Assembly (NCBI GenBank): GCA_049658265.1
Contig: JBASOM010000021.1
Location: forward strand, 40,155 to 64,154
DNA from: Tepidanaerobacteraceae bacterium
GTDB taxonomy: Bacteria; Bacillota; Thermosediminibacteria; Thermosediminibacterales; Tepidanaerobacteraceae
Direction: 5' to 3'
Length of the DNA stretch: 24,000 nucleotides
Shown here: piece after piece, positions 750-20,308 of the stretch
Layout: the number at the start of each line of letters is the position of its first letter
How positions within the stretch are numbered: the stretch's first letter is position 1
Notes under the pieces: model-generated
Told to the model about the DNA's origin: nothing
Seen by the model: the letters and a program-made list of their open reading frames with translations, nothing else
The model's database searches: none
Made by a program: the position numbers and the translations under genes

Positions 750-1919
750 TCAATCTAAAACCCTTCCGTAAATACCTCCTCCTCCTACCTCTATGTTCAG
801 CTTTCCTTCTCTTGCAAGTACGATATTTTCAGCTACTCGTTCCCCGACAACTTCGGTAAGTTCGGTTTTTTCAACATTGTGGATAACATTCATCTCGGTT
901 CCAAAATGTAAAATTAATTTTTCAATTGTTTTTTTGCCTATACCGGGAATAAATTCCAGCGGCACCTGATACTGATATAATGGCCTACCCGATGGATGAA
1001 TAGGTGTTTTATGGTCAGCGATGAGAGCAATCCTGTCAAATACTCCTAGTGTTACATCTTCGTTGTTACAAAAGGGACATTTTGTGATAGGTGATATATC
1101 CTTGGCAACATAGTTACATGCTGGACAAAAGGTCCTGTGGTATTTACCAAGTTTAGGGTCAAGGCCATAATTTGCCGCAATATAATTTCCATTATGCCCC
1201 TTAAGTGCTAAAACTAGATGCTCAAAGTCGGGAAATTGCAAATGCAGTTTATTGTATTCGCGTGCAATTTTTTCTAGGGAATGGGCATCTGAATTAGTTA
1301 AAAATGTTTTTTCTCTAAGTTCACTTATTGTATCGGCAAAATCCGTATCAGCGCTGAGCCCCAATTCAACTGAAATAATCTTATCCAAATCATCTTCGAA
1401 AGCATCTGCAAGTCTATCATAACAGCTTCCGTAAAAGCTTTTAAAAGGAGTAAAAACATGTGCCGGAATCAGCACTCCATCTAGATTTCGAACGATTTTA
1501 AATAAATCTTTGGCGCTAAGCCGGGCTTTTTGTGAACTCAAATTTATGTTAGTTATATATTCTGAAATGACTGAAGAAAAATCCTTAATTTGTTCAAGAA
1601 AAGGAAAGAAGGCTATGCTGTGAGCAACTCCCCTTAGCTCTTCAGTCTCTATCTCTGCTCCAAAAATTACGGTAAGCTTATCTTTATATCTTGCACCTCC
1701 ACCGGATAATGGTACTAGCTTCTCTTCATTAAACTGTTCTCGTAGTTCTTCAAGAACAAAGGGTGAAGCACAATCAATTATTCCAACAATATCTAAACCT
1801 TTCTTGTTAATGCAATAGTCATAAATATTATCAAGAGTTAACCTTCTTGAAGCGGTAATCTTAATAGGCTGATTTTTTGCTTGGCCTATGTGCACGTGTA
1901 AATCAGCAAAATATTCCAT
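750..1919 (-). CDS. PHP-domain plus zinc-ribbon protein, endonuclease Q (TIGR00375)-like
   Basis: 389 aa. It has an N-terminal YFADLHVHIG PHP-type metal motif and an internal CPAC-x12-CPFC four-Cys ribbon, followed by a C-terminal helical region. The start ATG overlaps the nudF stop by 1 nt (TAATG). Confidence 0.6.
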   Translation of the reverse strand: MEYFADLHVHIGQAKNQPIKITASRRLTLDNIYDYCINKKGLDIVGIIDCASPFVLEELREQFNEEKLVPLSGGGARYKDKLTVIFGAEIETEELRGVAHSIAFFPFLEQIKDFSSVISEYITNINLSSQKARLSAKDLFKIVRNLDGVLIPAHVFTPFKSFYGSCYDRLADAFEDDLDKIISVELGLSADTDFADTISELREKTFLTNSDAHSLEKIAREYNKLHLQFPDFEHLVLALKGHNGNYIAANYGLDPKLGKYHRTFCPACNYVAKDISPITKCPFCNNEDVTLGVFDRIALIADHKTPIHPSGRPLYQYQVPLEFIPGIGKKTIEKLILHFGTEMNVIHNVEKTELTEVVGERVAENIVLAREGKLNIEVGGGGIYGRVLD

Positions 1920-2878: not shown

Positions 2879-3661
2879 TTATCCCACCTTCAGCTCCATT
2901 CTCAGTTTATCCGAAATCAATGCAATGAACTCCGAATTTGTGGGTTTTCCTCTATCTTTTGTGGTGGTAAATCCAAAAAGGTTGTTTAAAGTTTCCACAC
3001 ACCCTCTATTCCAAGCCACTTCTATAGCATGCCTTATGGCCCTTTCCACTCTGCTAGGAGTCGTATTGTATTTTTTTGCTATGCTGGGATACAATTCTTT
3101 GGTTACTGCAGATAACAATTCTACATCATTTATCACCATAGATATGGCTTCACGGATATAAAAATAACCTTTTATGTGAGCCGGGATCCCTATTTCATGG
3201 ATAATATTTGTAATTTGAGCCTCTAGATTATCAGCTGAAAATCCTGCATTTCTTTTTTGCGTTTGCTGCACAAAAGGTGTGTTGACGTCAACCATCTGCC
3301 TTACGCGGTCAATCAAAATATTTAAGTCGAAAGGTTTAACAATGTAATAATCGGCACCTAGAGAAATTGCTTTTTGAGTAATCTTATCTTGACCTACAGC
3401 TGATAGAACAATGATTTTGGGTCTTTCCGGTTCATTAGATAACCGTTCTATTACACCTAATCCATCAAGATTAGGCATAATCAAATCGAGGATTAAAACT
3501 TCAGGTCTAAATTGGTCAACTTTTTCTAAAGCATCCAATCCATCATGGGCTACGCCAACAACTTTGATATCCTTTTGACTTTCGAAAAATTCAACCACCA
3601 AATTGCAAAACTCTTTGTTGTCGTCAGCAATTAACAATTTCACTGACTGTTCTTCCAACAT
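2879..3661 (-). CDS. spo0A: Sporulation master regulator Spo0A (response regulator)
   Basis: 260 aa. The receiver domain shows LLIADDN...LDLIMP. The C-terminal region contains the Spo0A-specific [15 protein letters not shown] helix. SD GGGGGG lies 6 nt before ATG 3661. Confidence 0.97.
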
Positions 3662-3700
3662 TAAAAACCCCCCTATGAATAATTTACTGATAAATGATTA

Positions 3701-3727
3701 ATTCGACAAAGACTGGAATTTTCCTCC
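3701..3727 (-). promoter_or_regulatory. Sigma-H-type promoter candidate for spo0A with an overlapping 0A box
   Basis: The minus strand reads GGAGGAAAA (3727-3719), an 11-nt spacer, then GTCGAATTA (3707-3699). This fits the recalled sigma-H consensus RnAGGAwww-11/12-RnnGAATww. A perfect Spo0A box, TGTCGAA (3708-3702 on the minus strand), overlaps the -10 element, 41-47 nt upstream of the ATG. Confidence 0.45.
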
Positions 3728-3750
3728 TTGTATTCCATATTTTGTTTAAA

Positions 3751-5037
3751 TTATATTTTTTCACGGTTGCCTACGGTATTAATCTCATTTAACATCCATT
3801 CAACAAATATGCCGTACCCTTTTGTCGGATCATTTACGAATACATGTGTTACTGCACCAACTATATAACCATTTTGGATTATAGGACTTCCGCTCATGCC
3901 TTGTATAATACCGCCGGTTTTTGCGATAAGCTCTTCATCAGTTATTTTTATTATCATGCCTTTATCATTAGGATGAGATTGTTTTATTATCTTTTGTATC
4001 TCTATATCAAATTCCTGTATTCTTTCTCCTTCAATTACCGTCAAAATCTTTGCCTTGCCTTCTTGAACTTGATTTATGGTAGCAACGGGAAGAGAATCGT
4101 AAAATGGGTTCTCAAAGGAATAACGAGCTTCTCCGAAAATACCAAAAGGAGTATTTGCAACTATTGTGCCAATAATTTTGTCTTCATTTACAAAAACTCC
4201 TTTCTTTTCTCCAGGCTGATTTTTTTTGCCAGGTGTTATTGAAGATATTTTAGCTCGAATTATCTCTCCTTGGCCTACCTCTATAATTTTCCCCGTATCT
4301 GCGTCCGAAATAATATGACCTAAAGCACCATAAAAATTTGATTTTGGGTCGTAAAAAGTTAATGTTCCAACTCCTGCTGCTATGTCCCTTACCCACAATC
4401 CAATCTGATAATAACCTAAATTGTTTTTTACAGGACTTAATGTTACATTGAAGGTCTCCCCATTTCTTTTTACAGCAAGGTTTACGGTTTTCTGCTTGTC
4501 AATTAATCTTGTCAACTCTTCTGCCTGATTGATTTTTTGGTTGTTAACCATAACAATGGTATCGCCCACCTGTATGCCCGCATCCTGTGCAGGCTGATGT
4601 CTGCGGCCTTTTTCATCAATTACAGATGCTAATCCCACTACTATCACGCCATTTGGCCTCAGCTTCACTCCAAGTGAATGCCCCCCCGGGACAACCCTGG
4701 TTTCAGGTAATACATATACTTTCAACCTCTTTACCGGTATAAAACCTAATAATCTAAACTCTAAATTGTATGCCCCCTGACTAGATGATTTTAAGACAAG
4801 AGGCTCTTTTAAATTTATTGTAAGCTTATCTTTTATATAGTTACCATTAACAAAAAAAGGGGCTTTACAAAATAGTTGTAAGGTCATTGGAGCTTCAAGC
4901 TCAAGCCTTTGCTCTTTTCCCTCAATTAATTTTATTTCATCCGGCAAATCAACGAGAAAAATATTGATGAAAGTAGAAGCAAAAATCAGTACTAATAAAA
5001 AAAACATGGCAAATTTATTCAATTTTGTTTTTTGCAT
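3751..5037 (-). CDS. spoIVB: SpoIVB signalling serine peptidase (S55, PDZ domain)
   Basis: 428 aa. It has an N-terminal TM segment, a PDZ-like segment (GIQVGDTIVMVNNQKI) and S55 protease motifs (GTLTFYDP...YGALGH, GMSGSPI). It occupies the canonical position next to spo0A and recN. Confidence 0.93.
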   Translation of the reverse strand: MQKTKLNKFAMFFLLVLIFASTFINIFLVDLPDEIKLIEGKEQRLELEAPMTLQLFCKAPFFVNGNYIKDKLTINLKEPLVLKSSSQGAYNLEFRLLGFIPVKRLKVYVLPETRVVPGGHSLGVKLRPNGVIVVGLASVIDEKGRRHQPAQDAGIQVGDTIVMVNNQKINQAEELTRLIDKQKTVNLAVKRNGETFNVTLSPVKNNLGYYQIGLWVRDIAAGVGTLTFYDPKSNFYGALGHIISDADTGKIIEVGQGEIIRAKISSITPGKKNQPGEKKGVFVNEDKIIGTIVANTPFGIFGEARYSFENPFYDSLPVATINQVQEGKAKILTVIEGERIQEFDIEIQKIIKQSHPNDKGMIIKITDEELIAKTGGIIQGMSGSPIIQNGYIVGAVTHVFVNDPTKGYGIFVEWMLNEINTVGNREKI

Positions 5038-8306: not shown

Positions 8307-8828
8307 TTATCCTCCTCTAGTTAAAAAGCCAACAACGAAACCTACTATAAATAAGAACAATAATATAAGTAAGTGCTTAAAGTATGTGGTTTTTTCATAA
8401 TTTATTATAGAGTACTCTACGGTCCTCAATCTTTGTTTTTCCATGTCAACTAAGATTAAACCGCTTGGACGGTACACCATGAAATATTCTAGCAATTGCC
8501 GCCGCGTATCTGCGTACTTGGGAGATGTTACTTTATCACCTGTTTTTACTTCAGCAACGTAAATTTTATTGCCTTTTTTCACAATCATATCAGCTTTGAC
8601 TGTTACTTTGTGAGCTTTATTATCAATAAATAATGTATACGATGATTCTTTTTGTAAATCAAGTATCTCAAAGCCATTATTCTCCATAAACTTTATGGCT
8701 TTATGTTCACCTCTTTTGGCCTTCTTCATTCTCTTTATTAGCTGCAGCTTTCTTATGTATTTAATAATATTTATTGTCAAAAAGATACCTATTATTGCAC
8801 CAAATATTAAATAATATATAATATCCAT
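8307..8828 (-). CDS. Membrane-flanked PD-(D/E)xK (NERD/YraN-like) nuclease-fold protein, function unknown
   Basis: One hydrophobic helix sits at each end (IIYYLIFGAIIGIFLTINII and LLILLFLFIVGFVVGFL). Between them is a soluble core of about 125 aa with the pattern RGEHKAIKFMENNGFEIL ... KADMIVKKGNKIYVAEVKTG, i.e. E...D...ExK. I place the start at ATG 8828 (GAAGGG 7 nt upstream). The track starts at GTG 8858. Confidence 0.5.
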   Translation of the reverse strand: MDIIYYLIFGAIIGIFLTINIIKYIRKLQLIKRMKKAKRGEHKAIKFMENNGFEILDLQKESSYTLFIDNKAHKVTVKADMIVKKGNKIYVAEVKTGDKVTSPKYADTRRQLLEYFMVYRPSGLILVDMEKQRLRTVEYSIINYEKTTYFKHLLILLFLFIVGFVVGFLTRGG

Positions 8829-8912
8829 TTTTAAACCCTTCAAGATCTTCAGTATCACTATGATAGCTTTTCCTCGCTATTGCTATATTTCTACAAAAAA
8901 ATAAAAATTCCT

Positions 8913-9716
8913 TTAAGTCAGTTCTAGATGCGATTTTTTTACAACTTCCTCTATTTTAACAGAGTGACCAATTAATGGGCTTTTCCTAAAATGTGATAGA
9001 TACTCAATGTTGCCCTTGGGGCCCTTTATCGGAGAAAAGGTGAGGTTATATATATGGAAATTGTTTTCCTTAGCATCATTGATGACTTTTTCAATGGCTT
9101 TTATGTGTAAATTATAGTCTCTCACAACTCCTTTTTTACCTACATCTTTTCTACCTACTTCAAATTGTGGCTTTATAAGTGTGATTAAGTCGCCATCTTC
9201 TTTCAGCAGTGTATAAAAAGGCTTGAATACTTTAGCAAGGGAAATGAATGACAAGTCAGCCGTAATAATATCCACCTTTTCGCCTATGTCTTCCAACGTC
9301 AAATACCTTACGTTTTTTCTTTCAAGTACAATTACTCTCGCATCCTCCCTCAGTTTGTACGCAAGCTGACCGTACCCCACATCCACAGCGTATATTCTTT
9401 TTGCGCCCCTTTGCAACATGCAGTCGGTAAAACCCCCGGTAGAAGCGCCTGCATCTAGTGCGATCTTATCTTTTACCTGTACATCAAATAGGTCAAGGGC
9501 TTTTTCTAGCTTCAACCCCCCTCTACTGACGTAGGGAATAGCTTTATTTTTAAGGACTATATGGCTGTCAACATCAACTGCCGTACCAGGCTTATCTATG
9601 ATTTGATTGTTAACCATGACATTGCCACACATTATTTCAGCTTTTGCTTTCTCCCGGCTTTCGATTATGCCTTTATTTACTAATAACATATCTAATCTTA
9701 TTTTGTTCTGGCTCAC
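8913..9716 (-). CDS. tlyA: TlyA-family rRNA (cytidine-2'-O)-methyltransferase (S4 + FtsJ domains)
   Basis: 267 aa. It has an S4-like N-terminus and the SAM-binding motif LDAGASTGGFTDCMLQRGAKRIYAVDVGYGQL. The start overlaps the upstream membrane-protein gene by 4 nt. Confidence 0.9.
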   Translation of the reverse strand: MSQNKIRLDMLLVNKGIIESREKAKAEIMCGNVMVNNQIIDKPGTAVDVDSHIVLKNKAIPYVSRGGLKLEKALDLFDVQVKDKIALDAGASTGGFTDCMLQRGAKRIYAVDVGYGQLAYKLREDARVIVLERKNVRYLTLEDIGEKVDIITADLSFISLAKVFKPFYTLLKEDGDLITLIKPQFEVGRKDVGKKGVVRDYNLHIKAIEKVINDAKENNFHIYNLTFSPIKGPKGNIEYLSHFRKSPLIGHSVKIEEVVKKSHLELT

Positions 9717-10348
9717 TGGCTTTCTCTCCTGCCGTTTCTTCTATTATTGTTGTTACTAGGTAATAGGTCAAGTTGTAAATTGTTCTTTAGTTTATACAAG
9801 AATAATCCAACACCGTAGACTACAGTTTTAGAGTTCTTTATTGCTATGCCCTTACCTAATGCTTTACCTCCGATGGTTAAGGTAGAAATAATACCGGTTA
9901 AAAGTATGCTAAAAATAATTACCTGATTTTGGCTAAAACCTGTTGCGGCAACTCTGACAACTATGGCTGCACCTGCTGCACCGCTTACAATACCACATAT
10001 GTCTCCCACAACGTCATTGCAAAAGTTTGAAACTATGTCAGCATTTCTAACGAGTCTGACTGCTTCCTTGCTTCCCGGAACCTTATCTGCCGCCATGGCG
10101 TGAAAAGGTGCTTCATTGGATGAAGTAACAGCTACTCCTATAATATCAAAGAAAACACCAATTATTATTATAAACAGCAATATGAACATCGAAATTATAA
10201 GATTAACTTGCTTTAATAAGATTTCCGAAATCGTACTAAAAAAAACGGAAAGCCCAAAAGCCAGAATAACGACCTTGTGTACCCAATTGGCTTTTGAACC
10301 TCCGTTATTTTTTTTATGCTTCCTCTTTTCTATATCAGAGTTCAACAA
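9713..10348 (-). CDS. oapA: Small basic-tailed integral membrane protein, candidate OLE-associated protein A (OapA)
   Basis: 211 aa, about four hydrophobic segments, with a basic N-terminus (KRKHKKNNGGSK) and a basic C-terminus (NNNNRRNGRRESQ). A DVVGD (DxxxD) motif lies at residues 112-116 (nt 10001-10015). The gene sits immediately 3' of the structured RNA. SD GGAGG is at 10357-10353, and the TTG start is at 10348 or 10345. The identification rests mainly on context. Confidence 0.65.
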   Translation of the reverse strand: MLNSDIEKRKHKKNNGGSKANWVHKVVILAFGLSVFFSTISEILLKQVNLIISMFILLFIIIIGVFFDIIGVAVTSSNEAPFHAMAADKVPGSKEAVRLVRNADIVSNFCNDVVGDICGIVSGAAGAAIVVRVAATGFSQNQVIIFSILLTGIISTLTIGGKALGKGIAIKNSKTVVYGVGLFLYKLKNNLQLDLLPSNNNNRRNGRRESQ

Positions 10349-10367
10349 AATACCTCCAGTTTCTTAA

Positions 10368-10970
10368 GGGAAACAGATGGTAATGGATGGGTTAATTTTG
10401 TGGCTTAGGTCTAGCAGGATTTCCCCAGCAGAAATCTATTCGTTGCCGAATAGACGGTTCCCCTTTAATTCTACTGCTGTTATGTCGCCAAAAACAGAGC
10501 TAGATTACCACTTAGTCCACACTGTAATCCCCTATCCATCTCCAATATTGGACCAGTCTAGGAGATTTCCTCACCAAAATCCTTCTCCTCCTAGCCTCTT
10601 TTGCAAAATGGATTTCAAAGGTAAAAAATTGATTTGTAATTGGCCAAATTACAAATCAACAAAAACCTTTTTCCGCCCATTTCACTCAAGGCAGGCTACA
10701 CTGCACCCAACCTTTCATCGAATGCAGGTTCACACCCTAAGCCATAGCCCTCAAGGAGTCCTATCAGGCCACGAACTTAGGTCTCCGCGGAAGTAGGGTC
10801 AACGCCTACATGCCTTTGTAGATCGCCCCATCTTCCTTACTCCCAGCACCAGCCCCCGACTGGGCGTCAGAAGCCAGCACTAGGAACTTCATCGATGTGC
10901 CCTTTGACGGATTTTTAGCCCCGCCCTCAGAGGAGGGATTTTGACTAGAATACTGTACCACCTGTTTCCC
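10368..10970 (-). ncRNA. ole: Large structured noncoding RNA, candidate OLE (ornate, large, extremophilic) RNA
   Basis: The element is 603 nt. It is bounded by a 13-bp helix: 5' GGGAAACAGGUGG (10970-10958) pairs with CCAUCUGUUUCCC 3' (10380-10368), with one G.U. It contains many nested helices, listed in the findings. It is richer in G+C than its flanks and has no ORF with an SD. The synteny ispA-[RNA]-4TM protein-tlyA-nadK-argR-recN matches the published OLE context, and the size matches the roughly 610 nt reported. I did not align it to the consensus. Confidence 0.8.
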
Positions 10971-10982
10971 TTGCTGAAAAAT

Positions 10983-11011
10983 ATTATAACACAAATACGA
11001 AACTGATTCAA
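10983..11011 (-). promoter_or_regulatory. Near-consensus sigma-A promoter driving the structured RNA (and probably oapA)
   Basis: The minus strand reads TTGAAT (11011-11006), a 17-nt spacer, then TGT-TATAAT (TG at 10991-10990, -10 at 10988-10983). It begins 18 nt after the ispA stop codon. The predicted start around 10976 is about 6 nt before the first base of the closing helix. Confidence 0.6.
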
Positions 11012-15094: not shown

Positions 15095-15640
15095 CTATTT
15101 TCTTTCTATTATGGTAATTTTGTCCACCGACACACCGGTTGTTTTTGTAACAACATCTGTAATCTGAGCAATATCTTTTTGCATAAGACCATCAGTTTTT
15201 ACTACTACATTGATGTGGTCATCAGAAAAGAAGATCACTGCATCTTCAAAGCCCTTCGCCCTTATGAGATTCTCTACAAGCATTTCCTTCTCTACTTTCT
15301 GGGAAAGCGCTATTAATTCTTGCTGGGCTTTTTCTTTAGATTCTGTACTGGCATTGGGATTGTTTATTAGTTCCCTCAAATAATCAGCTTCCTGGCCCCT
15401 CAATCGATCTCTTTCCAATTTATACTCTATAAAAAAATCATTTTCCAGATTTGCTACAGCCGAAATCTCTTGTGTATCATCAATTGCAGAAATAGATACC
15501 TTTTCCAATTCACCAGAATCCAGCTGTTTTTCGTACACCACTTTTGGAAAGTTACCTAAAAACATCATGTATGCAGACAATAAAAGTATTAAAGCAAATG
15601 CGATTATTAACAGGGTTCTTTTCTTAATCACAAATGACAC
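15095..15640 (-). CDS. spoIIIAH: Stage III sporulation protein AH
   Basis: 181 aa with an N-terminal TM segment and a C-terminal YscJ/FliF-like domain. It is the last gene of the spoIIIA array. It uses a GTG start next to GGGAGGGG. Confidence 0.8.
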   Translation of the reverse strand: MSFVIKKRTLLIIAFALILLLSAYMMFLGNFPKVVYEKQLDSGELEKVSISAIDDTQEISAVANLENDFFIEYKLERDRLRGQEADYLRELINNPNASTESKEKAQQELIALSQKVEKEMLVENLIRAKGFEDAVIFFSDDHINVVVKTDGLMQKDIAQITDVVTKTTGVSVDKITIIERK

Positions 15641-15713
15641 CCCTTTCCCCTCCCAATATTAAAAAATATTAAAGCCTATAACATAAAAAAGCGGTATCTC
15701 GCTGGTATATAGC

Positions 15714-16310
15714 CTATTTTGCCAAAACACTAATTCTATAAGTGGGTATGTCTAATAGTGTGGCTGTGGATTTAATAATCTTTTCTTTGATTTTTGATGA
15801 TGAGGCTCCATCGGCAATGATGAGTATCCCTTTTATTCTAGGGGCAGTTTTTTTTAAAACCATAGCCTCTTCCTCACCATTTTTTCTGAGCAGGACCATC
15901 TGTTGATTTCTTTGCTTTTCTACAATTGTCCTAACACCTCCTTCATTGTCTTTTTCCTCAGATGTTTTTTCGGTGTCAATAACATTAAATGCCGGTTCAA
16001 TCAATGTCTCATCCTCTAAGACAATCATCACATTAACATCACCTACGCCTTCTACTTGGCCCAACAATTCTGACAGTTGTTTTTCCAGCCTATTCTCATA
16101 AGACAGGTTTTCTATTGACTGACGGGGAATTTGTTGTAACTCTTTAGAGTCGTTTTTCGCGTGCTTGTAATTAGTATCGGAAAACATTTTGCTTAAGGAC
16201 ATCAGCAACAATCCCAATGTAAAAATAAAAATAAATTTGGAAACGACCTTGTTCTTGGGATTCTTTATCCATTCAAGAATCGACTTTATGTCTAGTTGTG
16301 ATTTCATCAA
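15714..16310 (-). CDS. spoIIIAG: Stage III sporulation protein AG
   Basis: 198 aa with an N-terminal TM segment and a C-terminal ring-forming domain (GVGDVNVMIVL...IKGILIIADGA). Position in the operon supports the call. Confidence 0.85.
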   Translation of the reverse strand: MMKSQLDIKSILEWIKNPKNKVVSKFIFIFTLGLLLMSLSKMFSDTNYKHAKNDSKELQQIPRQSIENLSYENRLEKQLSELLGQVEGVGDVNVMIVLEDETLIEPAFNVIDTEKTSEEKDNEGGVRTIVEKQRNQQMVLLRKNGEEEAMVLKKTAPRIKGILIIADGASSSKIKEKIIKSTATLLDIPTYRISVLAK

Positions 16311-16311
16311 C

Positions 16312-16941
16312 TCAATCCTCCAAACTTATATATATTTTCTCTTCGGGAATATTAAAGCTTGCAGCCAAGTAGTTTACAATTTCTTTAAACTCTTCTTTTG
16401 TCATTTCGGAAAGGACGTTAGAACCCAATGGTTTATTATCTATCTTTACTTTCTCAATGGATATTTTTTCTTGTTTGACATTTCCGTCAGCAAGCTGACC
16501 TGGTGGATTTTTATTCAAAGTTATTACAATTTCAGATATTTGCCCAAAGTCAGGACTAGAAAAATCCTCAACTAGTTTAACAGATACATCTCGAAGGTCA
16601 TGAGAAGTTATTTCGGCTATTTTTTGAAATAAATACTTCTCAATATTTGCTTTATACTCTGCAATCTTTATTTTATCGTTGTTTTCACTTAAGATGTGGG
16701 ACTTTGAATTAATACTTCTGTAATCTATAGGATCATCATATACAAAAGCAATTTCGTCAATTGAGAAATCCCTATGAAAAAGAGACATCACCGGACTCAT
16801 TATTACTATCATCACTAAAAGACCTAAAAAAACTTTTACATACCTTGAAAAGCTTTTTTCCGGTATAAAAAAATCAACAAAGGCCGCAAACATGACCACC
16901 ATCACTATTTGTCTAACCCATTGGCTTACTGCAGCAAGCAT
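16312..16941 (-). CDS. spoIIIAF: Stage III sporulation protein AF
   Basis: 209 aa with two N-terminal TM helices. Position in the operon supports the call. Confidence 0.8.
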   Translation of the reverse strand: MLAAVSQWVRQIVMVVMFAAFVDFFIPEKSFSRYVKVFLGLLVMIVIMSPVMSLFHRDFSIDEIAFVYDDPIDYRSINSKSHILSENNDKIKIAEYKANIEKYLFQKIAEITSHDLRDVSVKLVEDFSSPDFGQISEIVITLNKNPPGQLADGNVKQEKISIEKVKIDNKPLGSNVLSEMTKEEFKEIVNYLAASFNIPEEKIYISLED

Positions 16942-16945
16942 TGCA

Positions 16946-18118
16946 TCACCTCATCATAAGGCTAATGTTGCCGGACGCAATGATTACCGTTACAGCTACA
17001 AAAAACATTAATGCAACAGAGCTTACTGTAACAGCAATAAAAGTTAAATTGCCTGCTATTTCATTTAAACATTTGACCATTGGTTCAACTCCTAAAGGCT
17101 GAATTATAGCCCCTGCTAACCTATATATGAACACCATAGCCAATATTTTAATCACCGGAAATAAAATAGTTAAAAATATTACAACCAGGCCGGTAAATCC
17201 AATGGCATTTTTTAGTATTAAAGAACAGCCTACAACCGTGTCTATCGTATCCGAAAAAATACTGCCGACTATGGGAATAAAGTTTTTTGAAGCAAATTTG
17301 GCAGTTCTTATTGTTATTCCATCTACCGTTGATGCAGCAGCACCTTGAACCACTAAAATGCCTAAAAAAGCGCTGAGGAAAAGACCAAGCAAAAAAATAC
17401 ATACTTGTTTCAATAGAGATGATAACGCGGACACATGAAACCTGTCAGAAATGCTGCTTATAATACCTAATGCAGCTACAAAATAAATAATAGGAAGCAG
17501 AATATTTCTAATCCATGTACTTGCTATAGAAACACCTAAAAAGATTACTGGGTTGAAGATAGCAACTGAAGTTAAACCGCCTATAGAAGCGAGCAACGGT
17601 AGAATTACCGGCAACAGCGCTTGAATGACACTTACCATTTTATCTATTGTGTCCCTACCTACTCCCAAAGCAATGTCAAAACTTTGAATAGCTATTGCTA
17701 TCAGCAGTAAAAATGTAAATGCATATGTTACCTTTCCGATGTTATCATTTTCAAAGGCGCTTTGCACATTATACATCACCGCGCAAATTATAGATATGAT
17801 TATGAGTTCAGCTAATAAGCTCATGTTTGCAGATAATTCATGGAAAAAGTATCCTGCTATGCCCGTTATTAAAGCTTTTAAGTCGTAAGGTTTTTGACCT
17901 CTAAAGGCTTTTATCAAATCATCCAAACCATACTGAGGTATGTAATCTCTATAAGTTGAATTTAATTGTTCAATGAATAAATCAAATTCTGCCTTATCAA
18001 TTAGTTCATATTGTTTTTTTAGTATTTCTTCATTTATGTTGTCCTGGGCCAAAGCAGTGTTTGCAGCAAAGAACAAAGATATTATTAAAGTAATTACAAC
18101 AAAATATACTATTTTCAA
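16946..18118 (-). CDS. spoIIIAE: Stage III sporulation protein AE (polytopic membrane protein)
   Basis: 390 aa with a signal-like N-terminus and multiple TM helices. It uses a TTG start after AAGGAGG. Position in the operon supports the call. Confidence 0.88.
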   Translation of the reverse strand: MKIVYFVVITLIISLFFAANTALAQDNINEEILKKQYELIDKAEFDLFIEQLNSTYRDYIPQYGLDDLIKAFRGQKPYDLKALITGIAGYFFHELSANMSLLAELIIISIICAVMYNVQSAFENDNIGKVTYAFTFLLLIAIAIQSFDIALGVGRDTIDKMVSVIQALLPVILPLLASIGGLTSVAIFNPVIFLGVSIASTWIRNILLPIIYFVAALGIISSISDRFHVSALSSLLKQVCIFLLGLFLSAFLGILVVQGAAASTVDGITIRTAKFASKNFIPIVGSIFSDTIDTVVGCSLILKNAIGFTGLVVIFLTILFPVIKILAMVFIYRLAGAIIQPLGVEPMVKCLNEIAGNLTFIAVTVSSVALMFFVAVTVIIASGNISLMMR

Positions 18119-18167
18119 AAAATACTAAACCTCCTTGTACAATATAGTTGGTTTTCCGAGCACGTCT

Positions 18168-18554
18168 TCAAGGAAGTATCCTGATAACCATATCCATCAC
18201 TGCCATTAAAAGCGGGAGTGATAAAACTAATATGAGTATCTTTGCACCAAATTCTATCTTTGACGCTATTGCGTGCGAACCAGCATCTTTGCATATTTGT
18301 GAGCCAAATTCAGCTATATAAGCTATTCCTATAATTTTAAAAACAGTACTGATATACAAATTGTTAATATTGGCTCTTAATGATAACTCCCTTAAATATT
18401 CAATAACAGCTAGAATTTGGTCTATCATGCGCAGGAAGATTATTGCACCCACAATTATACTCATTTGCAAAGCGATTTCCGGCCTGTCCTCCCGAAGAAG
18501 CACCACAAGTATTGTTGTAACAATGCAGAGGCCGACAATTTGTATTATTTCCAT
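18168..18554 (-). CDS. spoIIIAD: Stage III sporulation protein AD
   Basis: 128 aa and about four TM helices. SD AGGAGG lies 7 nt before the ATG. Position in the operon supports the call. Confidence 0.88.
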   Translation of the reverse strand: MEIIQIVGLCIVTTILVVLLREDRPEIALQMSIIVGAIIFLRMIDQILAVIEYLRELSLRANINNLYISTVFKIIGIAYIAEFGSQICKDAGSHAIASKIEFGAKILILVLSLPLLMAVMDMVIRILP

Positions 18555-18565
18555 GAAAAGTCCTC

Positions 18566-18763
18566 CTAATAAAGTTGGAACATGCTTTTGACGTTCGAAA
18601 ATAACTGACTGACCAATTGTATTACCATCATTAAAACTATTACGACACCAACAAGAGTAGTCATTTGAGCTTGCTCCTTCCTGCCCGCTTCATCAAGTAC
18701 TTTGCTCAAAATTGAAATGACGATGCCGATCGCAGCTATTTTGAATAGAATATCTACTTCCAC
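18566..18763 (-). CDS. spoIIIAC: Stage III sporulation protein AC
   Basis: With GTG 18763 as start (AGAGAGGTG 5 nt upstream) the protein is 65 aa with two TM helices, the expected SpoIIIAC size. The track's 84-aa version overlaps spoIIIAB. Confidence 0.85.
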   Translation of the reverse strand: MEVDILFKIAAIGIVISILSKVLDEAGRKEQAQMTTLVGVVIVLMMVIQLVSQLFSNVKSMFQLY

Positions 18764-18779
18764 ACTAACACCTCTCTTG

Positions 18780-19301
18780 CTAATATAGTAAGAGGACAAC
18801 CATGATGCCCGACAATACACCTAAATATCTCCACATTTTCTCATTCTTCTCCTTTTCCTGAATTGAGCTGAGTTCTTGTTGCCTTAAATTGTTCATTGCC
18901 AATCTTATATTTTTAATTTGGTCCTGTTTGTCCGTTGAGCCCAGGTATTTCCCGAATGCTATTAATATTTCATAATCATTTTCTGCTATATAAGAGTTAA
19001 AAAAGAATTCCTTTAGCGACTTTTCCCATGCTTCATCGGCAGTCAAACCATTTCTGGAAGAAAGATACTGTGCTGCTCGAGCAAAAAGTTCCGCCACATC
19101 CTTATCACACTTCCTGCTGATGCTCTTTAGTGCTTGTGGAAGCGGTAAATGGCCATAGTTTATTTCAGATTCAAGCATGGAAAGTGCTGCTTGTAAATTT
19201 CTCAATGTATTAGGTCTTTTTTTATAAGTACCAGCGATAATAAAGCCTATCATGCTAGAAGATAGAACAACCATCATTCCTCCCACAAGTTTCAGCCACA
19301 C
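18780..19301 (-). CDS. spoIIIAB: Stage III sporulation protein AB
   Basis: 173 aa with one N-terminal and one C-terminal TM helix. It overlaps the spoIIIAA stop by 10 nt. Confidence 0.85.
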   Translation of the reverse strand: MWLKLVGGMMVVLSSSMIGFIIAGTYKKRPNTLRNLQAALSMLESEINYGHLPLPQALKSISRKCDKDVAELFARAAQYLSSRNGLTADEAWEKSLKEFFFNSYIAENDYEILIAFGKYLGSTDKQDQIKNIRLAMNNLRQQELSSIQEKEKNEKMWRYLGVLSGIMVVLLLY

Positions 19302-20308
19302 ATCTTTTCCTCCCTCCTGATTTTTATCAAATTCCTTCCAGTCGCGCTATCCAGTATGGCTTCTATTTTTCCCACTCCTAAATTCTTACTTAGGATGATG
19401 TATCTATCAAAAAATAATCTGTTTATCAATTTTCGAATGGTAGGCCTCTTTTTTATTTCTTCAAGACTTGAGCCGTGCACCGTAGCGATAATGGCAACAC
19501 CTGCATTTATGACTTCTTCGATTGCCAGAGCATCTTCATTTTTTCCTATTTCGTCGGTTGCGATTAAATCCGGTGACATAGAGCGAAGAAGCATCATTAT
19601 GCCCTTGGCCTTTGGGCAGCCGTCCAGTACATCCGTTCTCATGCCAACATCGTTTTGAGGGACTCCCTCATAGCAGCAAGCAATTTCCGACCGCTCATCA
19701 ACCAGTCCGACATTAATTCCATTGATTCCAAGTCTATCTACTCCGTTGCTGAGCTGTCTTATCAGGTCCCTAAGTAGAGTTGTTTTGCCTGCTTTTGGAG
19801 GAGATATAATTAATGCATTTAACAGCCGACCCTTATCTACTATGTAGGGTAAGACTTTATCTGCCGCTCCGATTATCTCCCTTGCTATTCTTATGTTTAA
19901 GCTCGATATGTTTCTGATAGCCTTAATATCATTATTCTCTAAAATCACATGACCTGAAAAACCAACTCTATGACCACCCGAAATGGTTATATAGCCATTT
20001 TTCAATTCTTCTTCAAAGGAATACACTGAGCATTGACTTATAAAGTGATAGGATTTATTGATATCTTCCTTCGTTACGTAATAAGCTAAATCACAATTCC
20101 GGGTTATCTCCCCATTATTTGTGAGCATAAAAGCCTCATTGTTTATTGTTAGCATTAGCGGTTTCATAGCTCTAAGCCTGATCTCTTCTAAACTCAAAAG
20201 ATATTTTATGTCTATGGATTCTATGGTTTTTGCTATGTGCAAAGGCAGTATGGGCAATATTTCATTTTGTAATACAATTTCAATTGATTTATTACCTTTA
20301 ATGCCCAT
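19292..20308 (-). CDS. spoIIIAA: Stage III sporulation protein AA (secretion-type AAA+ ATPase)
   Basis: 338 aa with Walker A (SPPKAGKTTLLRDL) and Walker B-like (LIATDEIG) motifs. It is the first gene of the eight-gene spoIIIA array. Confidence 0.92.
   Translation of the reverse strand: MGIKGNKSIEIVLQNEILPILPLHIAKTIESIDIKYLLSLEEIRLRAMKPLMLTINNEAFMLTNNGEITRNCDLAYYVTKEDINKSYHFISQCSVYSFEEELKNGYITISGGHRVGFSGHVILENNDIKAIRNISSLNIRIAREIIGAADKVLPYIVDKGRLLNALIISPPKAGKTTLLRDLIRQLSNGVDRLGINGINVGLVDERSEIACCYEGVPQNDVGMRTDVLDGCPKAKGIMMLLRSMSPDLIATDEIGKNEDALAIEEVINAGVAIIATVHGSSLEEIKKRPTIRKLINRLFFDRYIILSKNLGVGKIEAILDSATGRNLIKIRREEKMCG

Follow-up and report, generated by a model that had tools for sequence, protein, structure and literature searches.

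OLE RNA is among the largest and best conserved of bacterial non-coding RNAs, and its biochemical function is still unknown. It has one near-universal protein partner, OapA (OLE-associated protein A). The locus described here raises the question of whether the open reading frame (ORF) directly behind an OLE RNA encodes this partner in an uncultured member of the Tepidanaerobacteraceae, as an initial annotation made from the DNA sequence had proposed. The whole stretch of DNA that was analysed, 24,000 nucleotides in length, is referred to as the window. From sequence comparison it is almost certain that the ORF encodes OapA; the proposal is supported by homology to OapA of Halalkalibacterium halodurans, by the presence of a DxxxD motif, by a likeness to CNNM domains and by co-occurrence with OLE. 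The protein itself is an already-described one, and the window holds a routine orthologue of it in an uncultured Tepidanaerobacteraceae genome. The features of the locus are summarized in Table 1.

Table 1. Features of the ole-oapA locus, in window coordinates.
Feature	Position	Strand	Basis and remarks
GGKALGK basic patch, residues 160-166, TM4 end	9851..9871	-	K162 and K166 invariant; alignment A1
DVVGD (D112, D116), DxxxD signature of OapA, TM3 start	10001..10015	-	residues 112-116; both Asp invariant in 20 homologues
oapA (OLE-associated protein A orthologue)	9713..10348	-	211 aa, four predicted TM helices; 210 aa from TTG 10345
Shine-Dalgarno GGAGG of oapA	10353..10357	-	sequence; 4 nt before TTG 10348, 7 nt before TTG 10345
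OLE RNA, full-length type, directly upstream of oapA	10361..10977	-	Rfam RF01071, 531.3 bits, model 1-616 of 616
Promoter-like TTGAAT-17 nt-(TG)TATAAT	10983..11011	-	consensus scan, 10/12 matches with TG extension

The ORF had been described as encoding 211 residues with about four hydrophobic segments and two basic ends, and this description holds in each part, with a TTG start on the minus strand. The calculated mass of the product is 22.7 kDa and its pI is 9.96. Kyte-Doolittle hydropathy gives four hydrophobic segments, at approximately residues 25-45, 51-75, 112-135 and 142-161, and the AlphaFold2 model (mean pLDDT 76.5, pTM 0.64) has its long helices at residues 17-47, 50-76, 103-135 and 140-171. 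By charge count, residues 1-24 contain six Lys/Arg and two Asp/Glu, and residues 162-211 contain ten Lys/Arg and two Asp/Glu. The chain ends approximately 45 residues past the fourth transmembrane helix (TM4), and no part of the 211 residues is assigned by Pfam to a CBS or CorC_HlyC domain. Hydropathy, AlphaFold2 and Pfam together give a protein of approximately 200 residues with four predicted TM helices and no soluble domains, which is the size and topology of OapA.

OapA of H. halodurans was formerly also named BH2780 (PMC7936274). Its sequence was obtained through a Bacillaceae orthologue (L077), from which a further round of homologue searching led to an H. halodurans cluster (P0231); the other member of this cluster (P0241) is BAB06499.1 / Q9K970, the “BH2780 protein” of H. 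halodurans C-125. BLASTP against this protein, a comparison that had been proposed together with the initial annotation, gives 42% identity and 67% positives over 184 aligned residues (E = 1e-55). BH2780 has DVIGD at residues 100-104, and its D100 and D104 are aligned with D112 and D116 of the window protein. The initial annotation had also described OapA as a membrane anchor of approximately 21 kDa, encoded just downstream of ole, in which mutation of conserved aspartates is dominant-negative. The published record agrees on all of these points, and the mutant in question is PM1, OapA D100A/D104A (PMC9723947, PMC7936274).

The two proteins are similar in size, with 211 residues and 22.7 kDa in the window and 200 residues and 21.2 kDa in H. 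halodurans (WP_010898928.1). They have in common the DxxxD motif, four hydrophobic helices, a GGKAxGK patch and a basic C-terminal tail, whereas the N-terminal tail of the window protein has 12 additional residues and a more basic character (KRKHKKNNGGSK). In both organisms the gene lies directly downstream of a full-length OLE RNA (538.6 bits on the H. halodurans contig), but the gap between the two is 12 nt in the window and approximately 50 nt in H. halodurans. The hosts differ as well, one being an uncultured anaerobic lineage of thermophile type and the other an alkaliphilic Bacillus.

The family to which the protein belongs is large. Of 5.8 billion proteins searched, 6114 match the oapA product at E <= 1e-3; among the 120 matches listed, nearly all are 185-240 residues long, with a few shorter or marked as partial, and the closest homologues listed come from metagenome-assembled genomes (MAGs) of Tepidanaerobacteraceae. 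In a 20-sequence alignment (A1, 44-80% identity), 25 columns are invariant; its members were taken from a plain sequence search and the invariance is not circular. Since the ORF has this many matches and this many invariant columns, it is real beyond chance. The TTG start, a marginal Pfam match to Phage_holin_5_2 (E = 0.2) and marginal NCBIfam matches would suit some other small membrane protein, such as a holin-like or generic hydrophobic one, or a spurious ORF lying over the 3' flank of the RNA. However, the Pfam and NCBIfam matches are at noise level, NCBIfam having no model for the OapA family, and this reading has next to no probability against thousands of homologues, the invariant columns, a strong Shine-Dalgarno sequence and orthology to a biochemically characterised OapA. 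An identity as a holin or other small membrane protein was rejected on the noise-level matches, the homologues, alignment A1 and the BLASTP result with BH2780.

Two patches stand out in the alignment. The first is the DVVGD motif, which is located where it had been placed, at residues 112-116, and lies at the start of TM3; N111, D112, G115, D116, S122 and G123 are invariant and form the core of a SNFCNDVxGDIxGxxSG pattern. A DxxxD motif is distinctive of OapA and is missing from CNNM domains (PMC11332333). The second patch is GGKAxGK, in which G161, K162, A163 and K166 are invariant and G160 and G165 are at least 90% conserved. W22 and S41 are also invariant in the family alignment. A conserved positive cluster of speculative role has been described on the cytoplasmic face of OapA (PMC12265935), and GGKALGK is a candidate for it on sequence grounds, with the cytoplasmic face assigned by the positive-inside rule.

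That rule was applied to the four TM helices, and the topology prediction suggested with the initial annotation gives a clear charge pattern. The segments predicted to be cytoplasmic (the N-terminal tail, the loop at residues 76-111 and the C-terminal tail) contain 20 Lys/Arg and the two short outer loops contain one, so that an N-in/C-in topology is predicted, with both basic tails and the loop in the cytoplasm. The DxxxD motif, where TM3 begins, and the GGKAxGK patch, where TM4 ends, would then lie at the cytoplasmic interface, and the basic tails could contact the RNA.

A further question is how the protein relates to CNNM transporters. An OapA protein is expected to lack the conserved proline that is typical of CNNM domains. 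The PF01595 (CNNM) profile matches the oapA product with 24.2 bits (E = 2.9e-5), below its gathering score of 28.4; the match pairs residues 56-185 with profile positions 2-125, and the likeness therefore begins at TM2. A similarly weak CNNM match is found in 13 of 20 family members. When the AlphaFold2 model, which is of moderate confidence, is compared with the PDB by Foldseek, the MtCorB structures 7m1t and 7m1u and the CorC TM domain 7cfg rank first, as weak matches (best E = 2.5e-3, TM-score 0.44-0.50). The PDB was also searched by sequence for OapA or CNNM relatives, with the single protein and with a 20-sequence profile, and gave noise only (NccX, E = 0.94). A CNNM/DUF21 match below threshold together with a CorB-like fold is the pattern of OapA. 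In the literature OapA is distantly related to CNNM proteins and has a fourth TM helix where these have three, and 7M1U is the structure that matches it best (PMC11332333). The initial annotation had pointed to a resemblance to the TM domain of CorB/CNNM-type transporters and had suggested a DUF21/CNNM profile comparison; the resemblance is borne out in weak form by the profile, by Foldseek and by the literature. Relative to the CNNM/DUF21 TM domain (PF01595; PDB 7M1T, 7M1U and 7CFG), then, the oapA product has weak sequence similarity from TM2 onwards and its best, though weak, structural match, but it carries one extra TM helix at the N-terminus and a DxxxD motif that CNNM domains do not have.

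The same resemblance could be taken to mean that the gene encodes a stand-alone, truncated CNNM/DUF21 Mg2+ exporter of the MpfA/CorB/CorC type, which adjoins OLE by chance and works independently of the RNA. The profile match and the CorB/CorC structures would fit such an exporter, and some databases name relatives “CBS domain containing-hemolysin-like protein” or “Mg2+ and Co2+ transporter CorB”. The architecture of MpfA/CorB/CorC transporters is defined in the literature (PMC11332333), and the window protein falls outside it, with a PF01595 score under the gathering value and a chain that ends at residue 211 without a CBS pair or CorC_HlyC domain. The DxxxD motif and the fourth TM helix are present, the similarity to OapA is far stronger (E = 1e-55), the protein has an RNA partner unlike these transporters, and the link to OLE in 78 of the 80 best loci (see below) goes beyond chance adjacency. 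The exporter is thus very improbable and, as a claim of membership, effectively refuted, whereas Mg2+ transport by the protein alone would still allow an OLE-linked role. The oapA product fails the membership tests for MpfA/CorB/CorC yet resembles the TM module of such a transporter. Across Bacillota MpfA is anticorrelated with OLE, and shared ancestry and an overlapping Mg2+-related function of OapA and CNNM proteins have been proposed (PMC11332333). For OapA, a more speculative view from the literature is that its core is a divergent CNNM/CorB-like TM module with one extra N-terminal helix. With such a core, OapA itself may move or sense divalent cations under the control of OLE, as has been hypothesized in the literature.

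Co-occurrence with OLE was surveyed with a family-alignment scan of one genome per species, which gave at least 582 relatives. The analysis continued with the best 80 loci, which come from Thermoanaerobacterales, Clostridia, Oscillospiraceae, Paenibacillus and many Bacillaceae. One seed pattern of the scan was CNDV[IV]GDI, and motif conservation among the 80 loci is therefore partly circular; the flanks alone were searched for OLE. Searches by nhmmer with the window OLE found the RNA in 78 of these 80 loci, a set that over-represents close relatives, and it is always on the same strand and ends just upstream of oapA. The initial annotation had proposed this survey, and its assignment depended on homology to OapA and on a family that is not widespread in genomes lacking OLE; the BLASTP result (E = 1e-55) and the 78 loci agree with both. 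In a published analysis of 2,822 OLE hits in Bacillota, OLE and OapA were “almost completely mutually inclusive” (PMC11332333).

The two other loci (L011 and L045) have no OLE within 4 kb, either by Rfam (E <= 0.01) or by nhmmer with a profile of the 78 OLE matches (E <= 10). Both are uncultured Bacilli MAGs with OapA-like proteins that carry CNDV[VI]GDI (L011 3974-4507 and L045 3944-4546, 55% and 48% identity to the query, respectively), and in L011 the upstream gap is only approximately 235 nt. OLE may lie elsewhere in these genomes or may be absent from them.

OLE (RF01071) is the sole Rfam family in the whole window, and the order of the two features on the minus strand, with the RNA at 10361-10977 and the first start codon at 10348, 12 nt past the end of the OLE model, gives the ORF the gene position of OapA. 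In the Rfam consensus structure, the final paired base of OLE is 10382 and is followed by an unpaired modelled tail of 21 nt to 10361. The Shine-Dalgarno sequence therefore begins 24 nt past the closing helix and 3 nt beyond the end of the RF01071 model. It had been located at 10357-10353, which is confirmed as GGAGG, but its distance from the closing helix, given before as approximately 11 nt, does not stand. The conclusions are unaffected by the corrected distance.

Two neighbouring in-frame TTG codons, 10348 and 10345, occur at the oapA start. TTG 10345 is the better-spaced of the two, because GGAGG lies 7 nt from it and 4 nt from TTG 10348. Public gene calls use both starts: one record (P0245) has 211 residues and is identical to the window protein, and another (P0001) is near-identical, begins at the second TTG and has 210 residues. 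A third, an NCBI MAG record for the identical protein (P0010, “hypothetical protein WAQ00_05450”), is annotated as 158 residues only, starting at Met54. This call spans window positions 9713-10189 (minus strand) and is 53 residues short relative to 9713-10348. Its start is probably mis-called, because the basic N-terminal tail, TM1 and the invariant W22 and S41 are dropped.

The absence of a terminator between the RNA and the ORF had been reported before, and a scan of the minus strand likewise found no terminator-like site between OLE and oapA. The junction (10320-10400) folds no better than shuffled sequences (z = -0.17), and a hairpin that hides the Shine-Dalgarno sequence, or a terminator at this place, was rejected on that value. 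The promoter-like site ends 6 nt before position 1 of the OLE model, and six related loci (L001-L005 and L016) have TTGAA and TGnTATAAT elements aligned in register 5' of their OLE. The site probably drives an ole-oapA transcript, and the conserved hexamers suggest a dedicated ole-oapA promoter within a larger gene cluster. Since no terminator separates ole from oapA and a conserved promoter-like site lies just 5' of OLE, the two are most likely made as one transcript.

The 12-nt gap, the lack of a terminator and the promoter-like site at the 5' end of OLE also allow a bolder idea, in which OLE and the oapA message may remain one molecule and membrane insertion of nascent OapA would deliver its own OLE to the membrane in cis. 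This is a long shot; if true, the complex would assemble by way of co-translational membrane insertion and not by simple diffusion and binding. In E. coli, OLE is reported to be localised in an OapA-dependent manner (Block 2011), and the account of this in PMC12265935 does not distinguish cis from trans.

The likely role of the window protein can be described by analogy with H. halodurans. There, OapA binds OLE cooperatively (at least 2:1), localises OLE to the membrane and is needed for tolerance of ethanol, cold and Mg2+ (PMC12265935, PMC7936274); the experiments, cited in the literature, are those of Block 2011, Wallace 2012 and Harris 2018/2019. By orthology, the OapA of the window would dimerise in the membrane and bind OLE cooperatively near P2 and P4a, with two or more proteins per RNA, and would be needed to localise OLE to the membrane. 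The resulting ribonucleoprotein would help the cell to tolerate short-chain alcohols, cold, raised Mg2+ and poor carbon sources. Both DxxxD aspartates would be needed for proper function, and alanine versions would be expected to poison the complex. The locus contributes an example from the Tepidanaerobacteraceae in which the ole-oapA junction is unusually tight, and it leaves the known picture of the OLE-OapA system unchanged. It also allows the gene to be named correctly, where public databases have “hypothetical protein”, “CBS domain containing-hemolysin-like protein” or “CorB”.

Every recognisable gene in the window is on the minus strand. The order begins with pfk, an M24 peptidase gene, efp, spoIIIAA-AH, two asp23 genes, DUF2273, nusB, xseA, xseB and ispA; after ispA follow OLE, oapA, a tlyA-type FtsJ/S4 methyltransferase gene, a 183-residue membrane ORF, nadK, argR, recN and spoIVB, and then spo0A, a NUDIX gene, a 389-residue ORF and spoIIM. 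The core order nusB-xseA-xseB-ispA-ole-oapA-...-tlyA-argR-recN-spoIVB is common to the window and H. halodurans. In H. halodurans, dxs lies directly after oapA (L081 6613-8502), whereas it is missing in the window, and the window has nadK and the extra 183-residue membrane ORF between tlyA and argR. The OLE partners OapB (KOW/YbzG) and OapC (YbxF, L7Ae-type) had been reported as not evident in the window, and Pfam scans of minus-strand ORFs of at least 70 residues did not find them either.

Sporulation genes flank the ole-oapA cluster, namely spoIIM, spo0A, spoIVB and the whole of spoIIIAA-AH (49-705, 2879-5037 and 15095-20308, minus strand). These flanks fit the published correlation of OLE with sporulation genes (PMC11332333). 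Directly downstream, the start of the tlyA-type gene (8913-9716, minus strand) is overlapped by 4 nt of oapA (9713-9716). The 183-residue ORF (8307-8858, minus strand) lies between the tlyA-type gene and nadK, a position that is empty in H. halodurans. Its N- and C-terminal ends are hydrophobic, and its centre has sub-threshold matches to the PD-(D/E)XK-type families Cas4, UPF0102, NERD and PDDEXK_1 (E = 0.01-0.06); it may encode a membrane-anchored protein with a nuclease fold. The 389-residue ORF (750-1919, minus strand) has weak PHP_C and helix-hairpin-helix matches (E = 1e-4 to 5e-4), which are below threshold.
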